NCBI GenBank assembly: GCA_018716885.1
Contig: DVJI01000009.1
Location: 7,448 to 71,447, forward strand
Length of the DNA: 64,000 nucleotides
Source of the DNA: Candidatus Enterousia intestinigallinarum
Lineage (GTDB): Bacteria > Pseudomonadota > Alphaproteobacteria > Rs-D84
Direction: 5' to 3'
Under the pieces are notes generated by a model that searched no databases, was not told the DNA's origin, and worked only from the letters and a program-made list of their open reading frames with translations. The stretch's first letter is position 1. Every line of letters begins with the position of its first letter. Both the position numbers and the translations under genes were made by a program. Positions 3,762 to 59,900 of this stretch are shown piece after piece.

Positions 3762-3821
<60 letters not shown>

Positions 3822-3838
<17 letters not shown>

Positions 3839-3861
3839 GAATTTGCCACCGTTGGTGGTAT
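3822..3861. repeat. direct repeat copy 1 (tRNA-Pro 3' end plus downstream terminator hairpin)
   Basis: cagtcactccgaccagaatttgccaccgttggtggtatttttttt recurs at 3976-4020 with 2-3 mismatches. Confidence 0.7.
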
Positions 3862-3975
3862 TTTTTTTGACTGGGGGCGAACCAGCGAAGTAAGCGGTTC
3901 GAACCGCAGGCGAGAGGCGAACGGCAGGGCGCCGGTGAAGCGCGTTACGCGCGAACGAGCCCAGGTGGCGCAGCA

Positions 3976-4020
3976 GCCCAGTCACTCCGACCAGAATTTG
4001 CCACCGTGGGTGGTGTTTTT
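3976..4020. repeat. direct repeat copy 2 (duplicated tRNA-Pro 3' end plus terminator); att-like remnant
   Basis: cagtcactccgaccagaatttgccaccgtgggtggtgttttttt; the intervening 113 bp is GC-rich and holds a T-arm-like hairpin gcggttcgaaccgc. Confidence 0.6.
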
Positions 4021-4062
4021 TTGTTTTTGTGATATAATTCTTGTATTGGCGAGGGAAAAAGT

Positions 4063-29422: not shown

Positions 29423-29449
29423 AAAACGGGGCATTGCCCCGTTTTTTTT
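29421..29449 (+). terminator. intrinsic terminator ending the ribosomal superoperon
   Basis: hairpin acggggcattgccccgt followed by a T8 run. Confidence 0.7.
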
Positions 29450-29649
29450 ATGGAATAGATAACAGAGTTTATATATCGGTCTGCGACCATTTTGGCGCAG
29501 TATTTTTTTATTTGTTGCATTGCCACGTGGTGCGAAATTGCAAGCTTATAAATAGTAAAATCGACTTTGTGGTTGATTTAATCGTTGTGTATGATAACAT
29601 ACAAACGTCAGTGGGTGTTCCATTGACGGGGTGTAGTAGCCCTTTGTAA

Positions 29650-29805
29650 TTGTCAGAGATGACATAAAATATCGCCTCCACAATTTAGGTTGGAGGGTTG
29701 TGAATATCACGAATAAACAACACTATTATTACAATAGCTACTAACCTCCAACCACCTGAAATATTTTGGTGGTTTTTTCATTCGCAATGAAAAAGGAGGT
29801 TTAGA
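29650..29805 (+). promoter_or_regulatory. conserved structured 5' leader with an intrinsic terminator (candidate attenuator/riboswitch-like element), copy 1
   Basis: hairpin cctcca...ggttggagg (29685-29706), distal complement cctccaacc (29755-29763), then terminator aaccacc-N11-ggtggtt-tttt (29760-29788) about 20 nt before the RBS aaggagg; the same architecture precedes the paralog at 38675-38880 (minus strand). Confidence 0.45.
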
Positions 29806-30228
29806 ATGAAAAAACATTTAATCATCGCTGGCATAATTTGTGCGGCATCAATCCCACCAGCGTATGCAGTAACAAAATGCGTAAAACTAACGTCGTCAAC
29901 AACGTGTACAAGTTCCTCTGGCGCGACCGGTCAGTCAAATTGGTCTGCAACCTGTGGCGGTATAGAAATTCAGGGTGTTGCATTTTGTGGCTCTCAAGAT
30001 GGTTATTCATTTGGCGCAACATCCGAAACTGTCACGACCAGTTCAACCAGTGACGATAACAAATATTGTTGGTGCAAAATGGTTTCGCCTGCGGTGTCGC
30101 GCTGGGTTTTCTTCAACGCGCGCACGTCGGCCGGTATTTGCCTTAACTCTTGCGCGAACGGCTGTGCGTTCATCGCCCAGGTCGATGCGTCTTTCCGGTC
30201 GGTGCTGTTTAGTGGACTATCTGACTAA
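29806..30228 (+). CDS. small secreted Cys-rich protein A (140 aa)
   Basis: signal peptide MKKHLIIAGIICAASIPPAYA, 11 Cys, Ser/Thr-rich; about 90% nt-identical paralog at 38252-38674. Confidence 0.7.
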   Translation: MKKHLIIAGIICAASIPPAYAVTKCVKLTSSTTCTSSSGATGQSNWSATCGGIEIQGVAFCGSQDGYSFGATSETVTTSSTSDDNKYCWCKMVSPAVSRWVFFNARTSAGICLNSCANGCAFIAQVDASFRSVLFSGLSD

Positions 30229-30240
30229 ACGGGGGCGAAT

Positions 30241-30519
30241 ATGAAACGTATATTTATTTTTGTACTAGCGATTGTGCCGATTGGCGCATTTGCCGCCGCG
30301 CCGTCAACGTCGTGTCCCACGGGTTATGTTGCGGTTGTGGAATCGTATATGGAAATCGCGGACAGCACGTGTCCCGCTGGATATACATCCGCCGGTACGG
30401 CGGACAGTTGTCTGGCGTCGTCACCGGCCGGTTCGTGCATAATGTATGCGCCAACTGGTGTAACTTATACCGACGACAGCGGTTCATATGAATTTACATC
30501 TGCCTGTCCATTGGAATAA
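30241..30519 (+). CDS. small secreted Cys-rich protein B (92 aa)
   Basis: signal peptide MKRIFIFVLAIVPIGAFA; near-identical paralog at 37961-38239. Confidence 0.7.
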   Translation: MKRIFIFVLAIVPIGAFAAAPSTSCPTGYVAVVESYMEIADSTCPAGYTSAGTADSCLASSPAGSCIMYAPTGVTYTDDSGSYEFTSACPLE

Positions 30520-30520
30520 G

Positions 30521-30546
30521 CAAAACGCCCAAATGGGCGTTTTGTT
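30521..30546. terminator. bidirectional intrinsic terminator
   Basis: hairpin aacgcccaaatgggcgtt followed by a T-run. Confidence 0.6.
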
Positions 30547-31405
30547 ATCTGGTACGTTGTAATACCACAATCATTTCTGAATTGACATTTGTTTTGTCTT
30601 TGCGTATGCAGCCAATGCGAGCCCAGCGTTTGAATTTTTTTACAGCATCACGATATGCCGTAATTTTGTGCGCTATACCCCAGTTGCCGGTTTGGGCTAT
30701 TATCGTGCCACCTGGACGGACGTGGTTGCGCAACGACGCCAATGTCTGGTGTATTTGTTGCGGGGTCATATATTCAAATATATTTGACAGATTTATTGTA
30801 TCGTATTCACCGATCAGATGTGTGTGCAATGATTTTATATCCGACCATATGAATTTGAATGGTTCGTGTATTTTGTTACGCATTTGGGCATATTCGTCGT
30901 CTGTTGGTACAATATTCGCATAGTACGACGGGTTTAATCCGTTACTGAATATAGGATAAGCCGCCATTTGCTTTATAAAATATGCACTGTTTTGCGGAAT
31001 GTCATCAATCAATGTTCCGATTTGCTTTATATCCGATGCGCGATGTGCGGTATGCATATCGGACAACAGCTGTATATATTCCACACGGGATAATTTCTTT
31101 AACGCAGCGGTTTTAATGTCCATTGCCGCTTTGGCACAGAAAGACAGGTCGAATGTATCGATTTTTGTTGCGCCGCGCATAGCATAAAACATAGGATGAT
31201 CGCCAGACGCCGCAACGGTCAAAACGCGCGGCCCATCATTTTTTGTCAGTTCCGAAACCCAACGAATATCTTCGTTTGTCAGGACGTACGACGGGGAATA
31301 GTTTGAAAAGCCCAACATTTGATTATAAAATGTTGTGCCGTTCCCGCCGATAATGTATTCAGCGTGGGCATTGTCAATATTTAATCTTGGTGTTGCGTAT
31401 TTCAT
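30545..31405 (-). CDS. class I SAM-dependent methyltransferase-fold protein, DUF3419/BtaA-like
   Basis: 286 aa; RVLTVAASGDHPMFYA (SAM-binding-like GD motif) and the C-terminal GEYDTINLSNIFEYM...VRPGGTIIAQT resemble BtaA-family proteins; assigned from memory of family motifs only. Confidence 0.4.
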   Translation of the reverse strand: MKYATPRLNIDNAHAEYIIGGNGTTFYNQMLGFSNYSPSYVLTNEDIRWVSELTKNDGPRVLTVAASGDHPMFYAMRGATKIDTFDLSFCAKAAMDIKTAALKKLSRVEYIQLLSDMHTAHRASDIKQIGTLIDDIPQNSAYFIKQMAAYPIFSNGLNPSYYANIVPTDDEYAQMRNKIHEPFKFIWSDIKSLHTHLIGEYDTINLSNIFEYMTPQQIHQTLASLRNHVRPGGTIIAQTGNWGIAHKITAYRDAVKKFKRWARIGCIRKDKTNVNSEMIVVLQRTR

Positions 31406-31566
31406 TTCGCTCCCTCAGTTATTCTTTACTCAATATTATATAGTACAAAATAACCGATTGTCAATATCTGGCATTTTTTATGTTAAAAATATAATTGCGA
31501 CAGAAAAAATGCTTTCAATAAATTCATTAAATGTGATAAAATCTGATAAATAGGAAGGGCCTTTTT

Positions 31567-34557
31567 ATGAAAAAAATTGCAATTTTTTGTGCATTATTGA
31601 TGGGTTTTGTATATAACGCAGATGCGGCAACTGCACGTAATCCGCGGGGCAGCACGTCTGCAGCAACGGGTACGACGACTGCAACGCGTTCGTCTGGTGC
31701 GGCGACTGCGCGTAGTGCCACAACCGCACGCAGTGCGACCGCCACCCGCAGTGCGGCAACGCCCGCCACCACGGCACGCGCGGCGACGGCTGGTCGTACC
31801 ACTGTCAGCAGAACCCCCACCGCAACATCAACAACATCGGCCAGTACGGTCACACGCAGTGCAACCACGGCCCGTGCCGGTACAACACAAAAGGTCTTGA
31901 ATACTGGTACCAGTGTTGCCGCGGCAAATGAAAATGTTGTTGTCAGCGCGGAATGTCGCCAGAAATACTATGGTTGTATGGATTCTTTTTGTATGTTGGA
32001 TAACGACAGTGGTGGCCGCTGTATCTGCAGTGATAAAAATGCCGAATATGACGACATTTTGGCTCAAATAGAAGAATTGGATCAACAGTCGTATCAAATG
32101 GCGACGTACGGCGTTGAACGTATTGAAATGGGTGATGCGGCCGATGTTGCGATTGCAAACGCAAATGCGGTGGCACAGTCAATTATGGACGAAGCTGCCA
32201 AAGAGGAAGAAGATGATCGTCGCACGTTGGATTTGACGTCGTGGTTGTCGCCGGTTGATTTTTCTTCTGAAGACATTTTTGCCGATACCGGTATGATGGC
32301 CAGCCCGATTGAGGGCAAGGAAGGTGATGCACTGTACCAGGCATCGCATCAGATTTGTGCACAACAAATGCCAGAATGCAGCAATGAAATGAGTATGTTG
32401 CAACTGATGTATGCGCAACAAATTCGTTCTGACTGCAGCGCGTATGAAAACAGTTTGAAACAACAGAAAAATGCCAGTGCACAAAAACTGTATGCGGCGG
32501 AACAGGCACTGCGTGAAGCGGCACTGGAACAATACCAGACAGCTAATAAATATGACCTGGGGCAGTGTACCGTTGAGTTTAAGAATTGTATGATTTCAAC
32601 GGGTGGCTGTGGGGACGATTTTTCTGGCTGTGCGTCTGTTGCTGCGTTTGATTCAACAAATACACGTGGACGTGGCAGCGGTGCCGACACATATGAAATT
32701 CAGGGTAGTGCAACCAGCATAGAAATCCAAGCATCAACGTACGATATCTTGTTATCTAAAAAGCCCTTGTGCGAAGGCGTTACGAAGCAGTGTCAGTTGG
32801 TCGCTGACCAGGTCTGGGATACTTTCCTGCGTGAAGTCGCACCACAGGTCAAATCTGCAGAACTTATTGCTGAAAACAATGCAAGACAAAACTGCATCGG
32901 TAATATTTCTTCCTGTTTCCAGCAGGCCTGTCGTGATACTATTGACCCAAATGATCCGGACGGCTCTTATGATATGTGTCTGACCAGACCAGAAACTATG
33001 TTAAACCTGTGCCAGGTTCCTTTGAACGCCTGTGGGATTTCTACCGCGTCCGCAAGTGATGCAGAAGAATCTCCTATTTGGGAATTTGTCGTCGCGCGTT
33101 TGGCCTCTATGCGCGTCAATTCCTGCTCTACTCAGTTCAAAGAGTGTCTCCAATCTACAGACCGGTGTGGACCAGATTATACTCAATGTATCGGATTGGA
33201 TACGGATACCATTATGCGTATGTGCCCGTATGATACGCTGGTCGGATGTCAGCAACAGTATGGTGAAACTGAAATTATGGGCGAAGACGTTTATGATGAA
33301 TTGTATAATATCGCACAGGGTATTTTCCTGAATATCGATAATAATATGCTGACCGAATGCCAAAATGCCGCAAATGAAGCTATGATAAAGGTCTGTGGCG
33401 ATACAGAAACCTGTACTAATCTGACCACAGATGAAAATATCGGTGCTCGTTCGCTGGAATACAAGATTTGTGAATACACCAGCAGTGATAACAGTTTGGA
33501 TATTGATTATGCCAAATGTAGAACGGATGTTTCGCAAATTTTGGATACTGAATTGGGACGTGTTGAGGGCTCGACCAGCAGCGAATTAGGCCCAGTTACT
33601 CCGTTCGCCGGCGTTATTGACGGTACTATTTACTGGGAAAGCGTTGAAATTGACGAAGATGGTCGCCTGGCCAGTGTTGATGATTATCTGGAAAACATTG
33701 GTGAAACAAATATGAATGCAGCGACCAAGGATAAATTGTCGTCGGAATTGGCGGTATTACAGAAAAATATTGATACCGCAATCAATGCGATAGAGGCCGA
33801 CCCCAAGGTACAATTCTGTATGACTGGGCGCAATGTTGACGGTATTACAAACCGCAATGTCGTTGACCGCAGTTCCAGCACGACGGGACGCTTCCCGGAA
33901 CTGACTAAACAAATGCGTATGATAATTGCCAATGCCGCATTAAAAGTGGCTAAAGATAATTATTATAAAAAGTATGATGAATTAAATGAAAAAATGTTAC
34001 AGGATTACGCCACAATTGGTGAACGTATGGCGGAAATTCAGGGTGAAAATGCATTGGATGCCAGACGTGAAATTGCACGTATTGCGTGTGTGAATTTTGC
34101 AGAAATGGCCAGTTTGCCAAAATCGCCGGATCCACCGAAAAACGCATTTGGTAAAATCTTGTCTGCGGTGGCCTTGGTTGGTGCAGCAGTTGCAATACCG
34201 TTTACCGGTGGTTTGTCGGCGGTTGCAATTGCGGGCATCGGTGGTGCAGTAAGCGCCGGGGTAGGCGTGGCCGCTGCAGGTGCCGCGGTGGCCGGAATCG
34301 GATTGCTGGGCAATGTTGGTTCGGGCAGTGCAAATGGTGCGGATGCATCGGCACAGCGTGAACTGATTGGTTCCAAACAGTTGAATCAATGGAATTACAA
34401 AGAAACCATTACTTCAACGTTTGAATGGGATACGCTGATTTGCCACAAGTGCACGCGTACACAGCAGTGCAGCAAGACCAAGAACCCATTGTTTGGTAGC
34501 AAGTATTGCAAAACTTGGGCTGATCCGGTTGAAACCTGTACGGATACACAGTTCTAA
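31567..34557 (+). CDS. large secreted Cys-rich repeat protein (996 aa), lineage-specific family
   Basis: signal peptide MKKIAIFCALLMGFVYNADA; ATTARSAT-type low-complexity region; multiple Cys-rich modules including GGCGDDFSGCASVAAFDS and DRCGPDYTQC; C-terminal glycine-zipper hydrophobic stretch. Confidence 0.75.
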   Translation: MKKIAIFCALLMGFVYNADAATARNPRGSTSAATGTTTATRSSGAATARSATTARSATATRSAATPATTARAATAGRTTVSRTPTATSTTSASTVTRSATTARAGTTQKVLNTGTSVAAANENVVVSAECRQKYYGCMDSFCMLDNDSGGRCICSDKNAEYDDILAQIEELDQQSYQMATYGVERIEMGDAADVAIANANAVAQSIMDEAAKEEEDDRRTLDLTSWLSPVDFSSEDIFADTGMMASPIEGKEGDALYQASHQICAQQMPECSNEMSMLQLMYAQQIRSDCSAYENSLKQQKNASAQKLYAAEQALREAALEQYQTANKYDLGQCTVEFKNCMISTGGCGDDFSGCASVAAFDSTNTRGRGSGADTYEIQGSATSIEIQASTYDILLSKKPLCEGVTKQCQLVADQVWDTFLREVAPQVKSAELIAENNARQNCIGNISSCFQQACRDTIDPNDPDGSYDMCLTRPETMLNLCQVPLNACGISTASASDAEESPIWEFVVARLASMRVNSCSTQFKECLQSTDRCGPDYTQCIGLDTDTIMRMCPYDTLVGCQQQYGETEIMGEDVYDELYNIAQGIFLNIDNNMLTECQNAANEAMIKVCGDTETCTNLTTDENIGARSLEYKICEYTSSDNSLDIDYAKCRTDVSQILDTELGRVEGSTSSELGPVTPFAGVIDGTIYWESVEIDEDGRLASVDDYLENIGETNMNAATKDKLSSELAVLQKNIDTAINAIEADPKVQFCMTGRNVDGITNRNVVDRSSSTTGRFPELTKQMRMIIANAALKVAKDNYYKKYDELNEKMLQDYATIGERMAEIQGENALDARREIARIACVNFAEMASLPKSPDPPKNAFGKILSAVALVGAAVAIPFTGGLSAVAIAGIGGAVSAGVGVAAAGAAVAGIGLLGNVGSGSANGADASAQRELIGSKQLNQWNYKETITSTFEWDTLICHKCTRTQQCSKTKNPLFGSKYCKTWADPVETCTDTQF
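31650..31870. repeat. imperfect tandem low-complexity repeat (codons for A/T/R/S) inside the 996-aa gene
   Basis: reiterated gcgac/gccac...cgcagtgcg units coding for ATTARSAT-like repeats. Confidence 0.6.
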
Positions 34558-34586
34558 ACAAAAACGGGGCGTTCGCCCCGTTTTTG
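34558..34586 (+). terminator. intrinsic terminator
   Basis: hairpin aacggggcgttcgccccgtt followed by a T-run. Confidence 0.65.
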
Positions 34587-34634
34587 TTGTGTTGGTACAG
34601 AATTATAAAAATAAGATTATATCGCGAATAACAG

Positions 34635-35693
34635 TTAGTGCAGGTCGTTCAAATCGGTTATAACCGTTATACCATCGCGGGTCCATTGCGCGCGGCGTGC
34701 GTCCAGGTCAAGTATGTTCGTTTGTCCCAGGTACAATACTGGACGCACGCCGCGCGCCACGCCGGCCGCCAATACCGCGTCGGCGGGTGATGGCTTTTGT
34801 TTCCCAGATGCAAACCAGTTTGTATCGTCGGCTATCCAGAAATCGGGGTCATTATGCGCGGCAATCGCATCTTGTAATGTGAATATTATCCCGGATTCTA
34901 TTGTGTGTTCGATGCCTTTGGCAGACAAGTATTCCGCAACCGGTCTTAAATCGTCCGTTACATCGCCGGGTAATTGTGTTGGGGCGGGGGCCGGCTTGTT
35001 TTCTATTGGCGCTTGTGCGTCAGTATCAGCGTCGGTGGTGCCGGTGTCATTGTCAAAGTTCACATCGGAAAATACCGGCGCAAATGTTGGGGTACCCATA
35101 TCAAACGGATTGTCTTCGGCAACATCAAAATCTGTGGGCAAGGGCAGTTCAGTTGCGGGCTGTAGTTCCGGTTGCGGGGATGGTGTGGCTGGGTGGGATG
35201 ATGTAATATTGCTGATATCAAAGTTTGATTTTGGGGCGTGGCCACTGTGCGCGCGTGCACGAATAAATGCCGCACGCAGTTCCGTTGGAATTTCTTTTGG
35301 TGCGGGTGTTGGGGTGGTATCGACAATCGGCGCCGTGTCCGCGTTTTTGGGGGCTGTGTCCTGGGTCGGTTTGATTGTATCGTCTGGGACGGGCTGCATA
35401 AATTGTGGTAATGGTATTGTGAACAACGGCTTTTTAGTGCGTAAAATGATACTTGTTGTGGCAATGTACATCGGTATAGCCGCCAAAATCAGTATCCCGA
35501 AAACAAAACCCGGAAAACCACGCAGTTGTGCGTGCATCAAAATATGCCACTGTGCGCCGGAAAATATGTCAAAGTTGAACAGCCATTTCAAAACAGCCCA
35601 TATAATCACGCCATAACAAATCGTCCATATCAGCGCATATTTATTTTTTTGCAAAAATTCCAGGACTTTTTTCATCTTTATTATTATAGACAA
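34635..35693 (-). CDS. inner-membrane protein with a Pro/Thr-rich linker (352 aa)
   Basis: two N-terminal TM helices, PTPAP-type linker, acidic C-terminal domain; no recognisable motif. Confidence 0.55.
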   Translation of the reverse strand: MSIIIKMKKVLEFLQKNKYALIWTICYGVIIWAVLKWLFNFDIFSGAQWHILMHAQLRGFPGFVFGILILAAIPMYIATTSIILRTKKPLFTIPLPQFMQPVPDDTIKPTQDTAPKNADTAPIVDTTPTPAPKEIPTELRAAFIRARAHSGHAPKSNFDISNITSSHPATPSPQPELQPATELPLPTDFDVAEDNPFDMGTPTFAPVFSDVNFDNDTGTTDADTDAQAPIENKPAPAPTQLPGDVTDDLRPVAEYLSAKGIEHTIESGIIFTLQDAIAAHNDPDFWIADDTNWFASGKQKPSPADAVLAAGVARGVRPVLYLGQTNILDLDARRAQWTRDGITVITDLNDLH

Positions 35694-35809
35694 TTTTATT
35701 TATTTGTCAATAAACTTGTTGGGTTTGTGTTTATTTTATGTCTAAAAAGTGCTTTTTTTAGTGTTGCTTTAATGGTATAATTAAACAGATATATCAAGGG
35801 GGAGTTTTT

Positions 35810-37909
35810 ATGCAATCTTTGCTGAAGTTATTTGGTACATCTGTGGCGGGACTGGGAATCTTTGTCTTTGTTGGCAATGCGTATGCCGTTACCGCGCGCA
35901 ATACTGCGGGAAATGTTGCCCAATGGAACAGTCGGGCCGGCGTAACCACTTCTGTGTCGTCACAGCGTATGCCGACTATGCCGACATTGCCGAATTTTAC
36001 GGTTGGAAATGTGTCACCAGATTTGCCGAATAATACAACCCCCAGTAACCCAGGTGACCCGGATAATCCTGATAATCCTGATAATCCCGACCCGGAACCA
36101 GAGCCGGAATGTCCGGACGGTGGGGTCAAGGATTCTGAATACACAGTTGACAGCTGTATGAACGACGTGCTGATGTGTATAAACACCGGGGCGTTGCCGG
36201 GTGGATTGAACGATTTGTTTAATGAAGATTTGCGCAATTCCATTGTGAACGGTATGAATCTGTGTGCCACCCAGGTTGAATACTGTATCGCAAATGTTCG
36301 TAAAAACTGTTCGTATGTTTATCGGTCGGCCGCAGATGTGTGGATTGACTTTAATGCGCGCAAGGTTCAGCCCGCTTACTATAACTTTGTTTTACGCAAG
36401 ACGGGATTGACGCCGAACCAGGCGGAAAATACGTGTCTGTTGCTGGACGTGAATACATATGGTTCTTCGTTTAATGCGGTTGCTAATTCGGGCAGCGTTA
36501 CATCAGAATATAACATCGGTGTCGGTGCTTATAACAGCCAGAACGGAAATATGCTGATTAAAAATAATCCCCAGGGGGCTGAATTGAACTATGGCAATCC
36601 CGGGGTTGATGGTCAGCGTGGTCATTATGCGCGTTGGGATCCAACGACGGCGGAATGCTGGCTGCGTGTTGCGGCGTATAATAAGGATACCCAAATTAAA
36701 AACAGTTGGTTGTTTGGTGCCGCCGGAAACGACCAGCCGGCCGAAGTATGGCGCCAGGCGGGTGAAACATTTACGTGCAACCGTGATTTGTTTGGCTTTT
36801 CATTGATGAACCAGACAAATACTGCGGCGGTTGTTGGTGTCGGTGGCGGCGCGGTTGTTGGTGCCGGGGTTGGTGCGATTGCTGGACACGGCGCACGTGC
36901 CTTTGACTGCAGCAGGGCCAGCCATCGTGAAATGCTGACCGAAGAATTGCGGGCAGACGCCAGTTTTGGTTCAATCAGTGAATATCTGGAAGACCCGATT
37001 TTGGCAACGGTTGATGAAATAACACGCGACCAATGTGAACAGATTGTGTTGCTGTATGACAAGTTTGTTCAGGTAAAAGAAGCACTGAAAAAATGCAATA
37101 CGATTGAAGTCACATCGTCTGAAACAACGATTTATTCCGATGTTGCAGTACAATGTAACAATTATATAAATATTGAAGATTGCTTTTCTAATGTTGCTAT
37201 GCTGAATCCTTGCAAAGGACAGGGATTTACCACGGCACAACAGTGCGCGAACTTCTTAGCCCAGCAAAATGCGGATGCGGCCGCTGCGTTGGTGGACAAT
37301 GATCCGGCTGCGTCGGAAAATGAGTTCTGTTCGTTCCAACCGTTGAATCTGGCGCGCGCCAGTGGTACCGGCATATACTGTAACGCCGGCGGGGCGGGAT
37401 GTCAAAATGCGGTTCAAATATCGGTGGATGTAGAACGTCTGGACGATATATTCACATCTGAAATCAAGGATCTGTTACAAAATGGCGAAGAATCCAATAT
37501 GGGCAAGTCAATCGGTATTGGCATTGGTGTCGGCGCAGGTGCCGGTGGGTTGGCAACGGCGATTACCGCGTTCGTTGAACGCAGTAACATCAGTTGTCAC
37601 GTTGGTGACGGACTGGCGCAGGTCGGATATGGCAAATCATATTCGATTGGGTCGCTGAAAGATTTCTATGTCAAATGGAACCTGAATCTGCCAGACACAA
37701 TTACCCCAACGGGAACGGCGGTGGATTGTGATTCTTGGAAACGTGCGTGCGGTACAATTACTAACCTGGAACAGTGTGCGTCGGCTCAGTTAAATTATAA
37801 ACCGGCCGATGCGGCGACAACAACGTTGGTACCGACGGCGTGCACAGTATCGGGCAGCGTGTGCATAGAAAATTATCCGGTTGCCAAATCGTACGGTGCG
37901 TGTGAATAA
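35810..37909 (+). CDS. large secreted Cys-rich protein (699 aa), same family
   Basis: signal peptide ...FVFVGNAYA followed by VTARN (compare ATARN in the 996-aa protein); PDNPDNPDNPDPEPEPE repeat; 24 Cys; glycine-zipper segments AVVGVGGGAVVGAGVGAIAG and IGIGIGVGAGAGG. Confidence 0.75.
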   Translation: MQSLLKLFGTSVAGLGIFVFVGNAYAVTARNTAGNVAQWNSRAGVTTSVSSQRMPTMPTLPNFTVGNVSPDLPNNTTPSNPGDPDNPDNPDNPDPEPEPECPDGGVKDSEYTVDSCMNDVLMCINTGALPGGLNDLFNEDLRNSIVNGMNLCATQVEYCIANVRKNCSYVYRSAADVWIDFNARKVQPAYYNFVLRKTGLTPNQAENTCLLLDVNTYGSSFNAVANSGSVTSEYNIGVGAYNSQNGNMLIKNNPQGAELNYGNPGVDGQRGHYARWDPTTAECWLRVAAYNKDTQIKNSWLFGAAGNDQPAEVWRQAGETFTCNRDLFGFSLMNQTNTAAVVGVGGGAVVGAGVGAIAGHGARAFDCSRASHREMLTEELRADASFGSISEYLEDPILATVDEITRDQCEQIVLLYDKFVQVKEALKKCNTIEVTSSETTIYSDVAVQCNNYINIEDCFSNVAMLNPCKGQGFTTAQQCANFLAQQNADAAAALVDNDPAASENEFCSFQPLNLARASGTGIYCNAGGAGCQNAVQISVDVERLDDIFTSEIKDLLQNGEESNMGKSIGIGIGVGAGAGGLATAITAFVERSNISCHVGDGLAQVGYGKSYSIGSLKDFYVKWNLNLPDTITPTGTAVDCDSWKRACGTITNLEQCASAQLNYKPADAATTTLVPTACTVSGSVCIENYPVAKSYGACE
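36061..36087. repeat. 9-bp tandem repeat x3 (ggataatcc[t/c]) encoding DNPDNPDNP
   Basis: direct observation; in-frame. Confidence 0.8.
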
Positions 37910-37960: not shown

Positions 37961-38239
37961 TTATTCCAATGGACAGGCAGATGTAAATTCATATGAACCG
38001 CTGCTGTCGGTATAAGTTACACCTGTTGGCGCATACATAATACACGACCCGGTCGGTGACGACGCCAGACAACTGTCCGCCGTACCAGCAGATGTATATC
38101 CACTGGGACACGTGCTGTCCGCTATTTCCATATATTCTTCCACCACGGTAACATATCCAGCGGGACACGACGTGGACGGTGCGGCGGCAAATGCGCCAAT
38201 CGGCGCAATCGCTAGTACAAAAATAAATATACGTTTCAT
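37961..38239 (-). CDS. small secreted Cys-rich protein B' (92 aa)
   Basis: differs from the 30241-30519 product at only a few residues. Confidence 0.7.
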   Translation of the reverse strand: MKRIFIFVLAIAPIGAFAAAPSTSCPAGYVTVVEEYMEIADSTCPSGYTSAGTADSCLASSPTGSCIMYAPTGVTYTDSSGSYEFTSACPLE

Positions 38240-38251
38240 ATTCGCCCCCGT

Positions 38252-38674
38252 TTAGTCAGATAGTCCACTAAACAGCCCCGACCGGAATTTGGAGCTGCGC
38301 TGAGCGTGGAGCGCACAGTTGTTCGCGCAATTGTACGCGCAATAGCCGGCGGTCATCTCTTCGAAGTAGAACACCCACGACGAAACCGCTGGTGAAACCA
38401 TTTTGCACCAGCAATAATAGTTATCGTCACTGGTTGTACTGGTCGTGACATTTTCGGATTTGGTGCCAGCTGAACCACCATCTTGAGAGCCACAAAATGC
38501 AACGCCCTGAATTTCTATACCGCCACAGGTTGCTGACCAATTTGACTGACCGACCGCGCCAGAGAAACTTGTACACGTTGTTGATGAAGTTAGTTTTACG
38601 CATTTTGTCACCGCATACACTGGTGGGATTGATGCCGCACAAATTATGCCGGCGATGATTAAATGTTTTTTCAT
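38252..38674 (-). CDS. small secreted Cys-rich protein A' (140 aa)
   Basis: MKKHLIIAGIICAASIPPVYA...; ATG at 38674 with RBS aagggaga; the track's longer ORF (to 38716) adds an upstream in-frame MKKGDKN. Confidence 0.7.
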   Translation of the reverse strand: MKKHLIIAGIICAASIPPVYAVTKCVKLTSSTTCTSFSGAVGQSNWSATCGGIEIQGVAFCGSQDGGSAGTKSENVTTSTTSDDNYYCWCKMVSPAVSSWVFYFEEMTAGYCAYNCANNCALHAQRSSKFRSGLFSGLSD

Positions 38675-38880
38675 ATTCTTATCTCCCTTTTTCATTTTTT
38701 GATATGAAAAAACCACCAGAAATCTTCAGGTGGTTGGAGTTTAAGAACAATCAGTAGTAATTGCGTGGTTTATTCAATATATTCACCACACTCCAACCAA
38801 AATACGGTTGGATTTATTTTACGTCTTGCCGACGCTACTGACGGGTTCTTAAGCCCATCGGCGGAATACCCACCGACATT
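38675..38880 (-). promoter_or_regulatory. conserved structured 5' leader with terminator, copy 2
   Basis: the reverse complement carries ...tccaacc-gtatttt-ggttgga...ctccaacc then aaccacc-tgaagatttct-ggtggtt-tttt; the compensatory change in the first hairpin relative to copy 1 preserves pairing. Confidence 0.45.
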
Positions 38881-39009
38881 GTTTATAATATCGTGTTAGT
38901 TATTTTAATGCAAGGGATAATAGTTTTTTATTGTCGGACGTTTATAAGTTTGTTCTGTTTTTTTGGGGGGCTGTCGGTAAAGAAACATCCCGCCAGTTGG
39001 CGGGATGTT

Positions 39010-54699: not shown

Positions 54700-55794
54700 T
54701 TATCGATTTATTTGTACCGGAATTATGGTTTCAACCTGTGGTGTGTCCAATGGGTGTGTTTGAAACGGTATAGTGTCAAAATCGATTTTTGATAAATCTA
54801 TTTCGCGGATTGTGCGGTTGTACATTGTGTGATAGTACACGACTTTGTTGCGTGTGTCGGTGGCGATTGTCCATTGGGTTGCCGACGGCATATTATTTGG
54901 CGCGGCGTTTTGTGCAAACTGAACCCCCAGTGGTACATCAAAGTTATTCAGTATATGAAACGCTGCCATTGCGGTATCGTGTCCGTTTTCCTGGGGCAGG
55001 GAATATTCTTGTAAAAACGCGGCGCGCACAAATCGTGACGGCGGTGTAAAATCGCCCGGCAGTCCCAGCAATCCAGAACCCGCCCCAAATGCGCGCAGTG
55101 TTATCGGTCCCATTTTGACTGGCCCGGCCGTGCCAGGATGCAGATTTACATAGTTATTCAAATTCTTTATGTGCCACGGGTATTCGGGGGCATTTGTTAA
55201 AACGCCCAGTTTGCTGTCGTAAAATGTTGCAACGCCGTTTATGATTTCCAAAATAACCTGGCGACCAGATGGTTCGGTTATGCGCCAGTGCAGGGTGTCT
55301 ATGCGCGGGTCAACGTGTACTATGCGTACATTTTTTATGGCGTCTTTGACCTGGTCAATGGTTGAAAACTGTGACAGAATCCAGGGCACCACCTGGGCGT
55401 CGGCCAATGTTTGTGATTTATATTCCGGATTGTATTCGGGATATTGACCGTATTCTGGGAAATAGAACAGGGCGGCCGACAGGCCCGCTTCGTTTATGCC
55501 GTCAATAACAAATTCTGTTTGCGCCAGTCCCAATCCAACAAAACCGTATCGCGCGGCAAACGTATTTCCGTCATTTGCACCGTCGGGCAGCATTGATTGT
55601 TGGGCATATCCGCGGGGCGCAATCAGATAAAAACTGTCCATTTCTTCGCGTGACCAATCCATAGTGCGTGCAACGATAACCGCACCGTCGTTCGCCGTAA
55701 GTGTTATGCCAGTACAGGCCGACGCCGTATTATTTTGGGTATAAAATCCAGCCAATGCAACCGCGGTTGCAAATATAATTTGTTTCGTTTTCAT
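54700..55794 (-). CDS. secreted linear amide C-N hydrolase, choloylglycine hydrolase (Ntn) family
   Basis: signal peptide ending ...NTASA immediately followed by CTGITL (N-terminal nucleophile Cys); 364 aa. Confidence 0.75.
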   Translation of the reverse strand: MKTKQIIFATAVALAGFYTQNNTASACTGITLTANDGAVIVARTMDWSREEMDSFYLIAPRGYAQQSMLPDGANDGNTFAARYGFVGLGLAQTEFVIDGINEAGLSAALFYFPEYGQYPEYNPEYKSQTLADAQVVPWILSQFSTIDQVKDAIKNVRIVHVDPRIDTLHWRITEPSGRQVILEIINGVATFYDSKLGVLTNAPEYPWHIKNLNNYVNLHPGTAGPVKMGPITLRAFGAGSGLLGLPGDFTPPSRFVRAAFLQEYSLPQENGHDTAMAAFHILNNFDVPLGVQFAQNAAPNNMPSATQWTIATDTRNKVVYYHTMYNRTIREIDLSKIDFDTIPFQTHPLDTPQVETIIPVQINR

Positions 55795-55799
55795 TTTGC

Positions 55800-56897
55800 T
55801 TACTGCGCTGTTCTGTTTATCTGAACCGGTATCACGGTTTCGCGTTTAGTTGTATCCAATGGATGTGACTGGAACGGGATGTTTGCAAAATCAATCTTGT
55901 TCATATCGATTGAACGCAATGTCCGGTTGTACATAGTGTGATAGTACACTATGCGGTCGTGCATATCGGTGGCGATTGTCCATTGTGTTGCCGACGGCAT
56001 ATTTACTGGTACCTGGCCGACGGGAAATTCCGTTCCCAATGGCACGTCAAAATTGTTCAAAATATGAAACGCCTGCAGAACCGAATCGTATGAAGTATCC
56101 TGTTGCACGGAATAGGTCTGTAAAAACGCGGCACGCACAAATCGCGACGGCGGTGTAAAGTCACCCGGCAATCCCAAAAATCCCGACCCCGCGCCAAACG
56201 CGCGCAGTGTAATCGGCCCCATTTTTACTGGCCCGGCCGTGCCCGGTATTAAATTTACGTAATTGTTCAGGTTCTTTAACTGCCACGGATATTCTGGTGA
56301 ATTTGTCAGTACGCCCAGTTCGCTTTCATATACCTGGGGGCGGCCGTCGACAAATTCAATAATAATCTGTTTGCCGGACGGTTCCGTTACACGCCAGTGT
56401 GCGGTTGAAGCGCGCGGATCTATGCTGACAACGTCGATGTTTTGAATTGCGTTGCGTACCTGGTCAACGGTTGAAAATCGCGACAGTATCCACGATACCA
56501 GTTGAAAATCTGAAATTGTGCGCGCCTTGTTTTCCGGGTTATATTCCGGGTATTCGCCGTATCCGGGAAAATAAAACAATCCTGCGGACAGGCCTGCTTC
56601 GTTCATACCGTCCATAACCCAGCCCGGTTGCACCACGGCCAGGCCAACGTATCCATACATACTGGAAAACGTCATACCGCCCGTGTCGCCACCCGGCAGC
56701 ATTGATTGCTGGATATATCCACGTGGAACAATGGTGTATAAATTTTCCATTTCCGATTCGCCCCACTCAATCGTGCGGGCGGTGACAACACCGTTATCTT
56801 TGGATTTCAGGGTGATGCCCGTACAGGCATCCGCCCCGTTTGCGCAAATAGTGCCCAATATTACGGCCAGCGCAGAAAAAATTTTTCTCTTTCCCAT
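55800..56897 (-). CDS. secreted linear amide C-N hydrolase, choloylglycine hydrolase (Ntn) family, tandem paralog
   Basis: signal peptide ...ANGADA followed by CTGITL; colinear with the downstream paralog over most of its length. Confidence 0.75.
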   Translation of the reverse strand: MGKRKIFSALAVILGTICANGADACTGITLKSKDNGVVTARTIEWGESEMENLYTIVPRGYIQQSMLPGGDTGGMTFSSMYGYVGLAVVQPGWVMDGMNEAGLSAGLFYFPGYGEYPEYNPENKARTISDFQLVSWILSRFSTVDQVRNAIQNIDVVSIDPRASTAHWRVTEPSGKQIIIEFVDGRPQVYESELGVLTNSPEYPWQLKNLNNYVNLIPGTAGPVKMGPITLRAFGAGSGFLGLPGDFTPPSRFVRAAFLQTYSVQQDTSYDSVLQAFHILNNFDVPLGTEFPVGQVPVNMPSATQWTIATDMHDRIVYYHTMYNRTLRSIDMNKIDFANIPFQSHPLDTTKRETVIPVQINRTAQ

Positions 56898-56992: not shown

Positions 56993-59900
56993 TAGAAGTC
57001 GTATCTGAACTTCAACATACCGGTCTGTGAAGTGTAATCTTCGTGCAGATCCAAATCATAGTTCAACGATACTGTCAGACCACGCCATTCGGCAGTCAGG
57101 CCGATGCCAAATTCGCCGCCAAAGCGTGACAGACGATCGGCGTCGATGACGTATGATACGCTGCCCGGGGCGGTTATTGTCGCAACCGCTGCATCAGACA
57201 AGAAATCATATGTCGCCGCCGCACGCAGTTCCGGACGGAATTTCAATTCCATATCCGATTCGATTTCGAACGCGTAACGGATACCAGCAACACCGGTCAG
57301 ATAATCCATATCTGCGCCGTCAACGTGACCCAAAGCGACGTCATACGCGTCCTGGCTGATGTGCAGGTAACGGGCGCCGATTTCCGGGGTCAGACCAGAT
57401 GCGAAATCATAACCGGTCATAACCTGGCCACCGAACGAATCGACATCGTATTCGGATTCAAACTGAACACCGAACGGATTTGATGTTTCCGTATAGTTGC
57501 CCATTGTATAGTTCAACGCGGCATTGACATACCAGTTGTTCGGTTTGTATTGGCCGTACAGGAACAAGCTGTTCGATTCGATTTTCGTATCGCGAGAATC
57601 AGAATCAACGTCTGTATCGTTGTACGCATAACCGATACCGATTGTGTTTTTACCGTCAATCAATGCGTCTGCACCGACGGAAATACCGGTCGTGTCGCCC
57701 TTGAACTGGCCATTTAATTTAGAATGGTTATACAGACCCTGGGCCCAGATGCCATAATCTGCATTTGCCAAATCACCACCGCTGCGTCCAACTGTGCCGC
57801 CAGTCATACGGCCCGCCGCCAGTGACAGAACCTGGTTCTGGACGGATGACGAAATGGAATGTGCAACCGGTTTGTTTTCTGGATTCAGTTTAGCCGTTTC
57901 GTGTTCGACATAATCAACATTGCCTGCCGCCAGTTCAGTTTGGGCGCGCAATGAAATTGCAGTCAGAACATCGTCATCTGTATTGGCCAACACTGCGATT
58001 GTGGCTGCGCCCTGGTTGGACAGGCCGGTGTCTGCCGCGATATCTTCAACCGCCTTGATAGCGATTTCAATACCGTCCGCGCCATTGTTTATGACGTCGT
58101 ACGCCAGGCCAGCATCAATGGTGATGTCTTCGTGCGCAATGCCGCCGAATATGTCGTATGTGCCGACACTGCCGATTGTCAGTTGCAGTTTGCCGTTTTC
58201 ACCGGTTGTAATGCTGTCAGCCAACAATTTGCCATAGTTGTCGGAACTCAACATAGATGCGTTCAATGTACCGTCGATGTCGATGGATGCCTGTTCAACG
58301 GTTGTTGTGCCGATATCCAATGTTGCACCATCCGCAATGGTCAGTGTACCGTCACCGGTAATACCACCACCCAGCGTAGTTGTGCCGGATGCGACCGTCA
58401 TTGTGCCGATATTATGAATATCGTTTGCAACACCATCCGCCATATTGCCACTGAACACGTTTTCACCGTTCAGGGTCATAGCAACGGTGTTATATATTGC
58501 ACCACCGTTCACACCAGCTGTATTGTCGGTAAATGTTGCACCGTCAATCGTCAACGATGAATTTTCTGCCGATGCGCCGATACGTGTGGAAATTGCACCG
58601 CCGTATGTGCCGGATGAATTCTGGCTGAACACAGAATCACGAACTGTGGTGTTGGATTGGTCATACAAGAATATTGCGCCACCACCATTATTTGCATAAT
58701 AGGCGGGTTGACCTTCTTCAACATCCTCGATTTTTACCGTTCCAGTTGTTTTGTTCCCGATAAATTCAGAATTAGTAATCGTCATTGTCGCATCGGAAAC
58801 AATGGCGCCACCTTCGGCATCGACCGAGTTCGATTTAAATATTGATTCATCAATGTTTATCGTCGCGGTTGACCCATCGGCCTGAGATATCGCACCACCA
58901 GCAACAGCCGCCGTATTAGAACTGAATATTGAATTATTTATATTCAATTCGCCTGCGGCATTTGTTCCAACTGCAATGGCACCACCTATGCCAGCGGCGG
59001 TATCTGTTGCTTTGTTGCCAGAAAATGTGAAATTATTTAGTGCCAGATTTGTGTTCATTGAATTATAGAATATGGCACCACCCTGGGTTGCAGTATTATT
59101 TACAAATATAAAGTCACTGCCCAGATTCATATTATTGCTGCCCAGATATAATGCACCACCAGCTTTTGTACTGGAATTGGCAATGAACTGTGCGTAATCA
59201 GCGATTGTCAGATGTGAATCTGCATATGATGCTTTTATTGCACCGCCACCTGTTAGGGCTGCTTTGTTACCCTGGAACAAGGCGTCTTTGCCGATTGTCA
59301 AATTACCATTATTACCCAGGGATATTGCACCAGATTGTAAACCGCGTGTTCCGTGTGTGTTATCAACAAACTTTACATTGTCGCCGATTGTGGTTGTGGC
59401 ACCGGTGCCCATAAACAATGTGCCGTCGCCGGTGTTTCCAGAAAACGTAACATTGTCACCAATGTTTAACGTACCGGAATTGTATATTGCCCCACCGTCA
59501 CCGGTATCGGTTGAATTGCCACTGAATACGGTATTGTCTGCAACGGTCAGGGTGCCGCTGTTATATATTGCGCCACCTTGGCTGGCTGCATTTGTTGCGG
59601 TGTTATTTTTAAATGTTCCAGCAACGGACATTTCGCCAGCGTTATAAATTGCGCCGCCGTGACCACGTGTAGCAGTTGTGCTGTTGCCGTCAAATGTGCC
59701 ATCGACATTCATTGTTCCCAGATTGTAAATTGCACCACCTGTTTTGGCAGAATTTCCCGTAAACGTTGAACCAGATGCAATATTTACGGTGTTATAGAAA
59801 TCTGTTTTATTTTCAGCTTTGTCACTATTCAGGTTGGCAATGGCACCACCACGGTTTGCAGCCGTATTGCCGGTAAAATCAGTACGTCCCAGTGTCAGTT

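Follow-up and report, generated by a model that had tools for sequence, protein, structure and literature searches.

Two copies of a small gene, gene A, lie on opposite strands of a 64,000-nucleotide (nt) stretch of the genome of Candidatus Enterousia intestinigallinarum (hereafter the window), and both follow a leader that contains a hairpin and a run of U. Does such a leader regulate the gene behind it, and if so, by which pairings? An earlier note, which read the letters of 29650-29805, had proposed a regulated attenuator with mutually exclusive helices and a terminator within the leader. The comparative analysis supports this proposal. It indicates that the element is a promoter of its own followed by a leader of ~175-200 nt with nine helices, namely P1 to P6, the pseudoknots PK-A and PK-B, and a terminator (Table 1). 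Each copy is probably a promoter plus a cis-acting leader RNA, which would serve as a conditional transcription terminator with an antiterminator/terminator switch set by an effector. The interval that had been read covers only the 3' two thirds of the element, which starts at P1 and has its promoter further upstream.

The hairpin AACCACC-N11-GGTGGTT had exactly two matches in the window, one on the + strand (29750-29774) and one whose functional strand is - (38711-38735), whereas 100 shuffles of the window led to an expectation of 0. It was directly followed by T6 in both copies, and from its end to the ATG there were 31 nt in copy 1 and 36 nt in copy 2, inside the range of 20-45 nt that had been given. 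The leaders folded with z-scores of -5.4 and -7.6, which 0 of 200 shuffles equalled in either case. The alternative upstream pairing described in the earlier note was also found. The strands CCTCCAACC (29745-29753) and ACTCCAACC (38732-38740, -), here called seg3, share AACC with the 5' arm of the hairpin and are the complements of GGTTGGAGG (29688-29696) and GGTTGGAGT (38790-38798, -), here called seg2. Each GGTTGGAG takes part in a local hairpin as well, with CCTCCA (29675-29680) or TCCAACC (38806-38812) as its partner (seg1), and the registers of the two hairpins differ, as had been noticed.

Homologous leaders were collected in two sets. A one-genome-per-species scan for gene A homologues gave 32 loci, all in Enterousia-like or other alphaproteobacterial metagenome-assembled genomes (MAGs), from which 31 leaders were extractable. 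Metagenomes were scanned with a pattern for seg3 plus terminator only. Of the 123 matches, 59 had GGTTGGAG upstream and the rest were due to chance; 56 leaders were left after the removal of duplicates. Seg3 and the terminator are fixed by the search pattern in this set, which is an independent test for everything upstream of seg3. Pairs were counted in two alignments. A4 is a stitched, N-padded alignment that replaced the full-length MAFFT alignment A3, in which seg1 and P3 were too misaligned for pair counts; A5 aligns 74 leaders by plain MAFFT and is fitted to no structure. An alignment-free test compared the duplex energy of two strands within the same leader with that between leaders (5000 permutations, 31 genome leaders). 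PK-B was assessed by this method only, as its register varies, and hence has no per-pair counts. Some leaders (L011 and L021 from the same MAG, L041, L064, L077 and L139) joined 5' and 3' halves of different types and had mismatched PK-A/PK-B; they are either natural recombinants of paralogous leaders or chimeras of metagenome assembly across repeats.

Strong covariation was gained, not lost, when 85 homologues were added. In the alignment-free test, the z-scores were -11.3 for P1, -10.0 for PK-A, -10.7 for PK-B, -5.5 for P4 and -4.9 for P5. They were -6.9 for the antiterminator (seg2:seg3), -5.3 for the terminator, -4.7 for the helix of seg3 with the Shine-Dalgarno sequence (SD) and -4.4 for the hairpin of U-tract and A-tract (U/A hairpin), while three unrelated strand pairs used as controls gave +1.6, -0.1 and -0.1. 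The earlier note had noticed neither pseudoknot: PK-A joins the P2 loop to the 7-8 nt directly after P6, and PK-B joins the P6 loop to the linker directly after P2, whose strand complements the P6 loop in nearly all homologues. In about 50 of the 56 leaders of the metagenome set, the best complement of the 8 nt before seg3 lay in the P2 loop (z = -15.9), and the 29 distinct PK-A sequences each matched a partner ~105 nt away. The PK-B/P6 region reached z = -10.0 in the same 56 leaders.

The aligned leaders gave a similar picture. In A5, 93.4% of cells paired, compared with 78.1% in shuffles, and the covariation score was 0.446, compared with 0.165 in shuffles (0/500) and 0.06-0.09 when the partners were slid by 1-3 columns. 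PK-A was paired to 96.5% (A5) and 96.8% (A4), with all 7 of its 7 pairs changed on both sides and up to 5 pair types. P1 was paired to 93.5% (A5) and 95.1% (A4), with both-sided changes in 7 of 8 pairs. P5 (93.8% paired, 5/5 pairs covarying) and the base of the P3 helix (92%, 4/4) were similar in A5, as was P6 (93.5%), in which one pair was AU in 41 leaders and UA in 32. P4 was paired to 89-91%. The P2 stem covaried modestly (GGGG/CCC, GAGG/CCUC, GGAG/CUCC, CAGG/CCUG, GGAU/AUCC), and so did the seg3:SD helix. An independent run of RNAalifold predicted P1, PK-A, P3, P4, P5 and the terminator, with compensatory changes in 27 of 40 pairs. The nearly identical leaders L003 and L008 differed by two matched double substitutions in PK-A. 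An extension of PK-A by pairing of the P2 GGGG with the seg3 CCUC, which the nested minimum free energy (MFE) structure of RNAfold uses, was rejected because the P2 stem covaries locally while seg3 stays constant.

The expression platform was supported by the same kind of data. The majority form of seg2, GGUUGGAG, can pair either upstream or with the downstream CUCCAACC, and this downstream pairing covaried by itself. Seg1, seg2, seg3 and the SD co-varied as sets, in four flavours across homologues (Table 1). The antiterminator was paired to 97-99%, the A4 value being 99.3% with 3 covarying pairs. Its terminal pair was GC in 59 leaders, UA in 13 and AU in 1, so that it was paired in 73 of 74; an inner pair was UA in 23, AU in 7 and GC in 1. 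The last base of seg2 paired with seg1 in only 41 of the 74 leaders. It thus follows seg3 and not seg1, which argues that the antiterminator itself is under selection and is comparative evidence of its use. Since AACC is common to seg3 and the 5' arm of the terminator, antiterminator and terminator are mutually exclusive. The comparative data therefore back both alternative pairings of seg2, along with the helices and the two pseudoknots.

Of 74 family members, 69 had a σ70-type -10 hexamer (TAnnnT) that ended 3-13 nt (mode 6-7) 5' of P1; a TG extension and a -35 element often accompanied it. This position suggests that each leader is its own transcription unit starting at P1. The terminator stem was paired to 99.6%, its inner extension pairs covaried (GC 13, AU 7, GU 6), and 61 of 74 leaders had at least six U in the 7 nt after GGUGG. 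In both window copies, a predicted promoter upstream was combined with U6 and a stem of 7 bp, or 10 bp if the inner pairs are counted, the make-up of an intrinsic terminator. A simple terminator scanner had missed this hairpin because its loop exceeds 8 nt, and a simple scan had missed the leader promoter as well. When transcripts ending at the U-tract were folded as nested structures, 30 of 31 leaders had the terminator state as their MFE structure. The antiterminator, when forced, cost ~11 kcal/mol on average, a gap that is overstated because pseudoknots cannot be kept in a nested calculation.

From these pairings we infer where transcription starts, in which order the RNA folds, that termination takes place, which way the switch works, and that an effector exists and what it may be, as follows. 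Transcription would begin a few nt 5' of P1 (1-6 nt in copy 1). P1 to P6 would fold while they emerge, and PK-B and PK-A would then form a compact pseudoknotted sensor domain. In copy 1, seg1 would initially hold the switch strand seg2 (GGUUGGAGG) in P4. If P4 persists, seg3 (CCUCCAACC) would be left free, its AACC would enter the terminator hairpin of 7-10 bp, and RNA polymerase would halt at the U-tract ~30 nt ahead of the open reading frame (ORF). In transcripts that escape, the CCUCC of seg3 would pair with the SD, aided by the U/A hairpin, as a second, translational lock. If instead seg3 displaces seg1 from seg2, the resulting antiterminator of 9-10 bp would consume the 5' arm of the terminator together with the anti-SD, and the genes would be transcribed and translated. 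The choice would be set by an effector on the sensor domain, for which a small molecule, a protein and another RNA are candidates. Thermodynamics, and probably kinetics too, make the terminator state the default, so that an activating effector is slightly favoured over a repressing one. An OFF default is likewise weakly favoured by the order of folding, as P4 would form first and leave seg3 little toehold.

The RNA matched no catalogued family. A search of the whole window with Rfam 15 (4227 covariance models) at gathering thresholds returned two tRNAs only, and the same search of eleven further leader-bearing loci returned tRNAs only. At E up to 10, both window leaders gave scattered sub-threshold chance matches, mostly to neighbouring terminators. 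A literature search gave no report of RNA elements in Enterousia or Rs-D84. These results agree with the earlier note, in which no known riboswitch class had been recognised. On comparative grounds, the leader is a new and well-supported class of complex-fold leader RNA, outside all catalogued families, that would work like a terminator-type riboswitch. It has the conserved structured sensor domain of a riboswitch, with covarying P1, P3, P5, P6, PK-A and PK-B, and exclusive pairings that share seg2 (with seg1 or with seg3), both of which covary; seg3 and the terminator overlap by 4 nt.

By analogy, the leader may behave functionally like a riboswitch or a protein-dependent attenuator. It resembles terminator/antiterminator riboswitches, especially second-messenger classes such as that for cyclic di-GMP (c-di-GMP-I, or GEMM-I; RF01051), whose targets include diverse virulence and surface genes, in being a cis-acting 5' leader with a covarying pseudoknotted sensor, a switch strand common to sensor and antiterminator, and a terminator just before the ORF. 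Further points of likeness are the variety of the genes behind the leader, many of which encode surface proteins, and an occasional tandem arrangement. In contrast to these riboswitches, it had no Rfam match, its sensor of ~150 nt is larger than most aptamers, and it has an extra anti-antiterminator hairpin. The closest formal analogues are the pyr attenuators of Bacillus subtilis (PyrR; RF00515), in which three helices are mutually exclusive and the switch strand is locked by a small hairpin on the 5' side, so that a terminator further downstream can form. However, no pyr genes were nearby, the domain is far larger and contains two pseudoknots, the P4 loops vary in length and sequence, and RF00515 gave no match at E up to 10; the effector need not be a protein. 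T-box leaders (RF00230) are similarly long and structured and terminate by default, and their antiterminator is stabilised by a trans-acting RNA. The present leader lacks a T-box sequence, specifier loop and stem I, had no RF00230 match at E up to 10, precedes genes other than those for aminoacyl-tRNA synthetases or amino acids, and has as its antiterminator a plain, bulge-free helix of 9-10 bp. Leader-peptide attenuators (trp, his, pyrBI) share the logic of competing helices (1:2, 2:3, 3:4) that ends in a terminator, whereas the leader has no conserved leader ORF and has P1 at its extreme 5' end, with no ribosome site.

The earlier note had regarded the element as the leader of gene A. It does precede both gene A copies, but it is not specific to them, as the complete leader was found before many unrelated genes, mostly for secreted or surface proteins with signal peptides. 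The products included Listeria-Bacteroides repeat proteins, an outer membrane protein (OMP) beta-barrel and proteins with ephrin-receptor-like Cys repeats. Other downstream genes encoded XRE-type helix-turn-helix (HTH) regulators, an EcoRI-type adenine methylase and a Fic protein (393 nt downstream). The gene A family itself formed 505 clusters at 90% identity, with a Pfam domain in none. Its N-terminal half is conserved, and a hypervariable stretch (residues ~100-130) lies between conserved flanks (alignment A2). The C-terminal module CWC...W[VL]F...C...C...C...FR..LF also ends many far larger secreted proteins behind the same leader (L051, L065, L070, L079, L121) and appears to be an uncharacterised domain common to a superfamily of variable surface proteins.

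The leaders were numerous within genomes. A MAG of ~1 Mb (BRZ_KL bin36) had at least 13, counted only around gene A homologues. A covariance model built from 74 leaders revealed arrays in which 2-4 units stand in tandem ahead of XRE-family HTH genes (Table 1). Some array units were complete, with their own promoter and terminator, and had no ORF behind them (L026 1357-1532, L114 5610-5798). Other arrays consisted of partial P4-P5-P6 modules arranged head to tail, in which the seg3 of one unit is the seg1 of the next. At L026, a leader-XRE unit lay directly upstream of a leader-gene A-gene B cassette. Within the P5 loop of some homologues, a hairpin is inserted between the two GAAUA halves.

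Enterousia and other Rs-D84 are gut Alphaproteobacteria that have not been cultured; their genomes span 0.75-1.0 Mb and encode hardly any biosynthetic capacity (PMC12306168). One complex fold before many secreted, surface and accessory genes suggests control of the cell surface at the RNA level, which is probably central to the dependence of these bacteria on a host or partner. We tentatively propose, as a possibility that we consider rather doubtful, that the leader senses one global cue (a second messenger, a molecule derived from the host or partner, or a dedicated RNA-binding protein). The dozen or more copies per ~1-Mb genome would then gate a variable surface repertoire together with XRE, restriction-modification and Fic genes, and the tandem and ORF-less units would be decoys or amplifiers. 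If true, this would be an RNA-based master regulon in bacteria without most conventional regulators, and would imply a new ligand or effector class. As an orphan RNA class with ~90 examples, nine covarying helices and two pseudoknots, the leader is unusual in that comparative data back the expression platform, with both alternative pairings, besides the sensor. It is therefore a good model for the mechanics of switching and a candidate for a new effector. With a σ70-like promoter and an intrinsic terminator, it should be directly testable in Escherichia coli.

A promoter, a structured RNA and a terminator are also what a free-standing small RNA (sRNA) gene consists of. Such an RNA could act in trans, with its CCUCC binding SDs or its P5 loop titrating a protein, and read-through would be secondary. 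The units that have no ORF before the next promoter, the tandem arrays and partial modules upstream of XRE genes, the terminator state as the default fold and the many copies per genome are all in keeping with an sRNA. We nevertheless consider this explanation unlikely, since in the great majority of cases an SD and a start codon follow on the same strand within 25-40 nt after the terminator. Moreover, seg3 and the SD co-vary, the U/A helper hairpin ties the leader to the ORF, and a selected antiterminator pairing would be purposeless in a constitutively terminated sRNA. The roles of attenuator and sRNA are compatible, and some units may also be free-standing RNAs. A constitutive structured 5' untranslated region (UTR) is less likely still. 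It would stabilise the mRNA or tune translation by masking the SD, and the hairpin with its U-run would be an arm of a three-way junction, not a terminator. In the MFE of close-coupled cases, this hairpin indeed meets the U/A hairpin and the seg3:SD helix in a three-way junction, and the window copies have a short stem of 7 bp, four of them G-C, and a loop of 11 nt. However, leaders whose ORF is missing or begins more than 100 nt downstream still keep hairpin and U-tract, as do those with neither SD pairing nor a U/A hairpin. The conservation of the U-tract and the 2-3 covarying pairs that the inner loop often adds also speak for a terminator, and a passive stabiliser would need neither a selected alternative pairing nor two pseudoknots.

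Ribosome-mediated attenuation through a leader peptide, as in trp or pyrBI, is very improbable and is already contradicted by the comparative data. It could use an upstream ORF (uORF) at the ribosome-binding site (RBS) or an ORF that follows the SD-like seg2. The earlier note had pointed to the RBS uORFs, and both exist as read: MKKEV* overlaps the RBS in copy 1, and an in-frame extension is present in copy 2. They were not conserved among the 31 homologues (absent in 11, an in-frame extension in 9, 5-7 amino acids (aa) long in 11), their AUG is part of the A-tract hairpin, and they have no evident part in the mechanism. As to the second site, seg2 GGAGG is followed by GUG in both window copies, and an ORF of at least 8 codons occurs there in 45 of 70 leaders. 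A start codon was present there in only 25 of 66 leaders, because the codon is a covarying P5 base pair, and the apparent frame bias arises because stop codons in the conserved loop close both alternative frames. The stop scattered from -43 to +32, the SD-start spacing is 3 nt, and seg2 is sequestered in P4. The least probable explanation, that the RNA has no function and the helices are incidental to recent duplication or gene conversion of the cassette or to a DNA recombination site, we regard as practically discounted. The cassettes are an inverted duplication, and the leaders are mosaic, including recombinant chimeras. This explanation is already contradicted by the covariation tests: compensatory double changes stand in near-identical backgrounds (L003 vs L008), the varied PK-A sequences match their distant partners while negative controls are flat, and the same fold occurs before unrelated genes.

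Several points weigh against a conditional terminator. Its central events, the stop at the U-tract and the switching of that stop, are deduced from sequence comparison. The six core pairs of the terminator are invariant, so that covariation is uninformative on them, and the energy comparisons leave out the pseudoknots. SD masking and the U/A hairpin occur only where the ORF lies within ~40 nt. The functional mix of downstream genes, without a metabolic theme, gives no clue to a ligand and is unusual for a metabolite riboswitch, and stand-alone or tandem units without an ORF suit a free-standing RNA equally well. About 6 of 87 leaders are mosaics with mismatched pseudoknots. As the leaders are related and often recombinant, shuffle statistics overstate significance, a problem of kinship that the slid, non-cognate and independent-set controls meet in part only.

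Table 1. Features of the two leaders in the window, with switch-strand flavours and tandem arrays of homologues. Promoters are predicted from sequence.
Feature	Copy 1 (+)	Copy 2 (-)	Description
Promoter	29573-29600	38885-38913	Copy 1: -35 TTGATT (29573-29578), 16-nt spacer, TG-extended -10 TGATAACAT (29592-29600); copy 2: -35 TTGCAT (38908-38913), 17-nt spacer, -10 TATTAT (38885-38890)
P1	29607-29627	38857-38877	Copy 1: 8-bp hairpin, conserved GUGUU loop, at the RNA 5' end; copy 2: GUCGGUGG-GUAUU-CCGCCGAU, compensatory changes relative to copy 1
P2	29628-29643	38843-38856	Copy 1: hairpin GGGG...CCCU, loop 29634-29640 (UAGUAGC) is PK-A 5' strand; copy 2: hairpin, loop UUAAGAAC (38845-52) is PK-A 5' strand
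PK-B 5' strand	29644-29650	38835-38841	Copy 1: UUGUAAU, linker directly 3' of P2; copy 2: UCAGUAG
P3	29652-29663	38822-38834	Copy 1: hairpin GUCAGAGAUGAC; length varies among homologues, some with a nested GC-rich insert
A-rich linker	29664-29674	38813-38821	Copy 1: AUAAAAUAUCG; conserved and unpaired in alignments A3 and A5
P4 (anti-antiterminator hairpin)	29675-29696		Copy 1: seg1 CCUCCA (29675-29680), seg2 GGUUGGAGG (29688-29696); copy 2: seg1 UCCAACC (38806-38812), seg2 GGUUGGAGU (38790-38798)
P5	29697-29721	38763-38791	Copy 1: 5-bp stem around the most conserved loop, GAAUAU-NNN-GAAUAA
P6	29723-29737	38748-38763	Copy 1: hairpin CUAUU...AAUAG, loop region 29728-29734 (AUUACAA) is PK-B 3' strand; copy 2: loop CUACUGA (38751-57) is PK-B 3' strand
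PK-A 3' strand	29737-29743	38741-38748	Copy 1: GCUACUA, adjoins seg3 on its 5' side; copy 2: GUUCUUAA
Seg3	29745-29753	38732-38740	Copy 1: CCUCCAACC, partner of seg2 (antiterminator) and source of AACC in the terminator 5' arm, its CCUCC being the anti-Shine-Dalgarno; copy 2: ACUCCAACC
Intrinsic terminator	29750-29778	38707-38735	Copy 1: AACCACC-N11-GGUGGUU plus U-tract
U-tract:A-tract hairpin	29774-29794	38688-38711	Copy 1: UUUUUCAUU-CGC-AAUGAAAAA; present in the MFE of both copies
Shine-Dalgarno	29795-29799	38683-38687	Copy 1: GGAGG, able to pair with seg3 AACCUCC; copy 2: GGGAG
Regulated genes	29806-30519	37961-38674	Copy 1: Cys-rich gene A at 29806-30228 (140 aa) and gene B at 30241-30519 (92 aa), both with a signal peptide; copy 2: gene A at 38252-38674, gene B at 37961-38239
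Flavour, majority			Seg1 CUCCAAC, seg2 GGUUGGAG, seg3 CUCCAACC, SD GGAGG
Flavour, seven loci			Seg1 CUCCUGA, seg2 GGUCAGGAG, seg3 CCUCCUGACC, SD CAGGAG
Flavour, L023			Seg1 UCCCGAC, seg2 GGUCGGGAAG, seg3 CUUCCCGACC, SD GGAAGG
Flavour, L026 unit 2			Seg1 GCCAACC, seg2 GGUUGGGGG, seg3 CCCCAACC, SD GGGGG
Tandem arrays			L114 5180-6020; L064 260-1009; L026 1357-1771; also L082, L094, L047, L129

Within the window, the covariance model accepted just the two known copies. A further match at 1761-1940 (23.6 bits) was judged spurious: it is intergenic, consists of two ordinary convergent-looking terminator hairpins and lacks seg3 and PK-A. The window proteins matched HIS70739-70747 exactly (alphaproteobacterium, order Rs-D84). 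The locus of copy 1 directly follows rpoA-rplQ and the rplQ terminator (29423-29450); the upstream genes carry their own terminators, and the promoter sits between these and the leader. A Pfam search gave no domain for gene A or gene B. The gene A-gene B cassettes are 87% identical and bracket, as an inverted duplication, ~7.4 kb (30545-37909). On this segment lie genes for a DUF3419/methyltransferase-like protein and for three large proteins of 996, 300 and 699 aa without a Pfam domain, and homologous recombination between the inverted cassette arms could invert the segment.

Further observations concerned other parts of the window. Ribosomal protein L17 (28877-29422) has 181 aa, with the Pfam L17 domain ending at residue 118 and an extension of ~60 residues whose end is Lys/Ala-rich. 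The 46 nt at 3822-3867, which comprise the 3' end of a tRNA gene (3762-3835) and a terminator-like hairpin, were repeated 155 nt downstream at 3977-4022 with 96% identity, a pattern typical of the scar of an integration (att) site. A diverged tandem duplication was found at 54707-55221 and 55816-56330 (74-78% identity, period 1109 nt), and a second pair at 58444-58506 and 59515-59577 lay ~1071 nt apart, which suggests paralogous adjacent genes.

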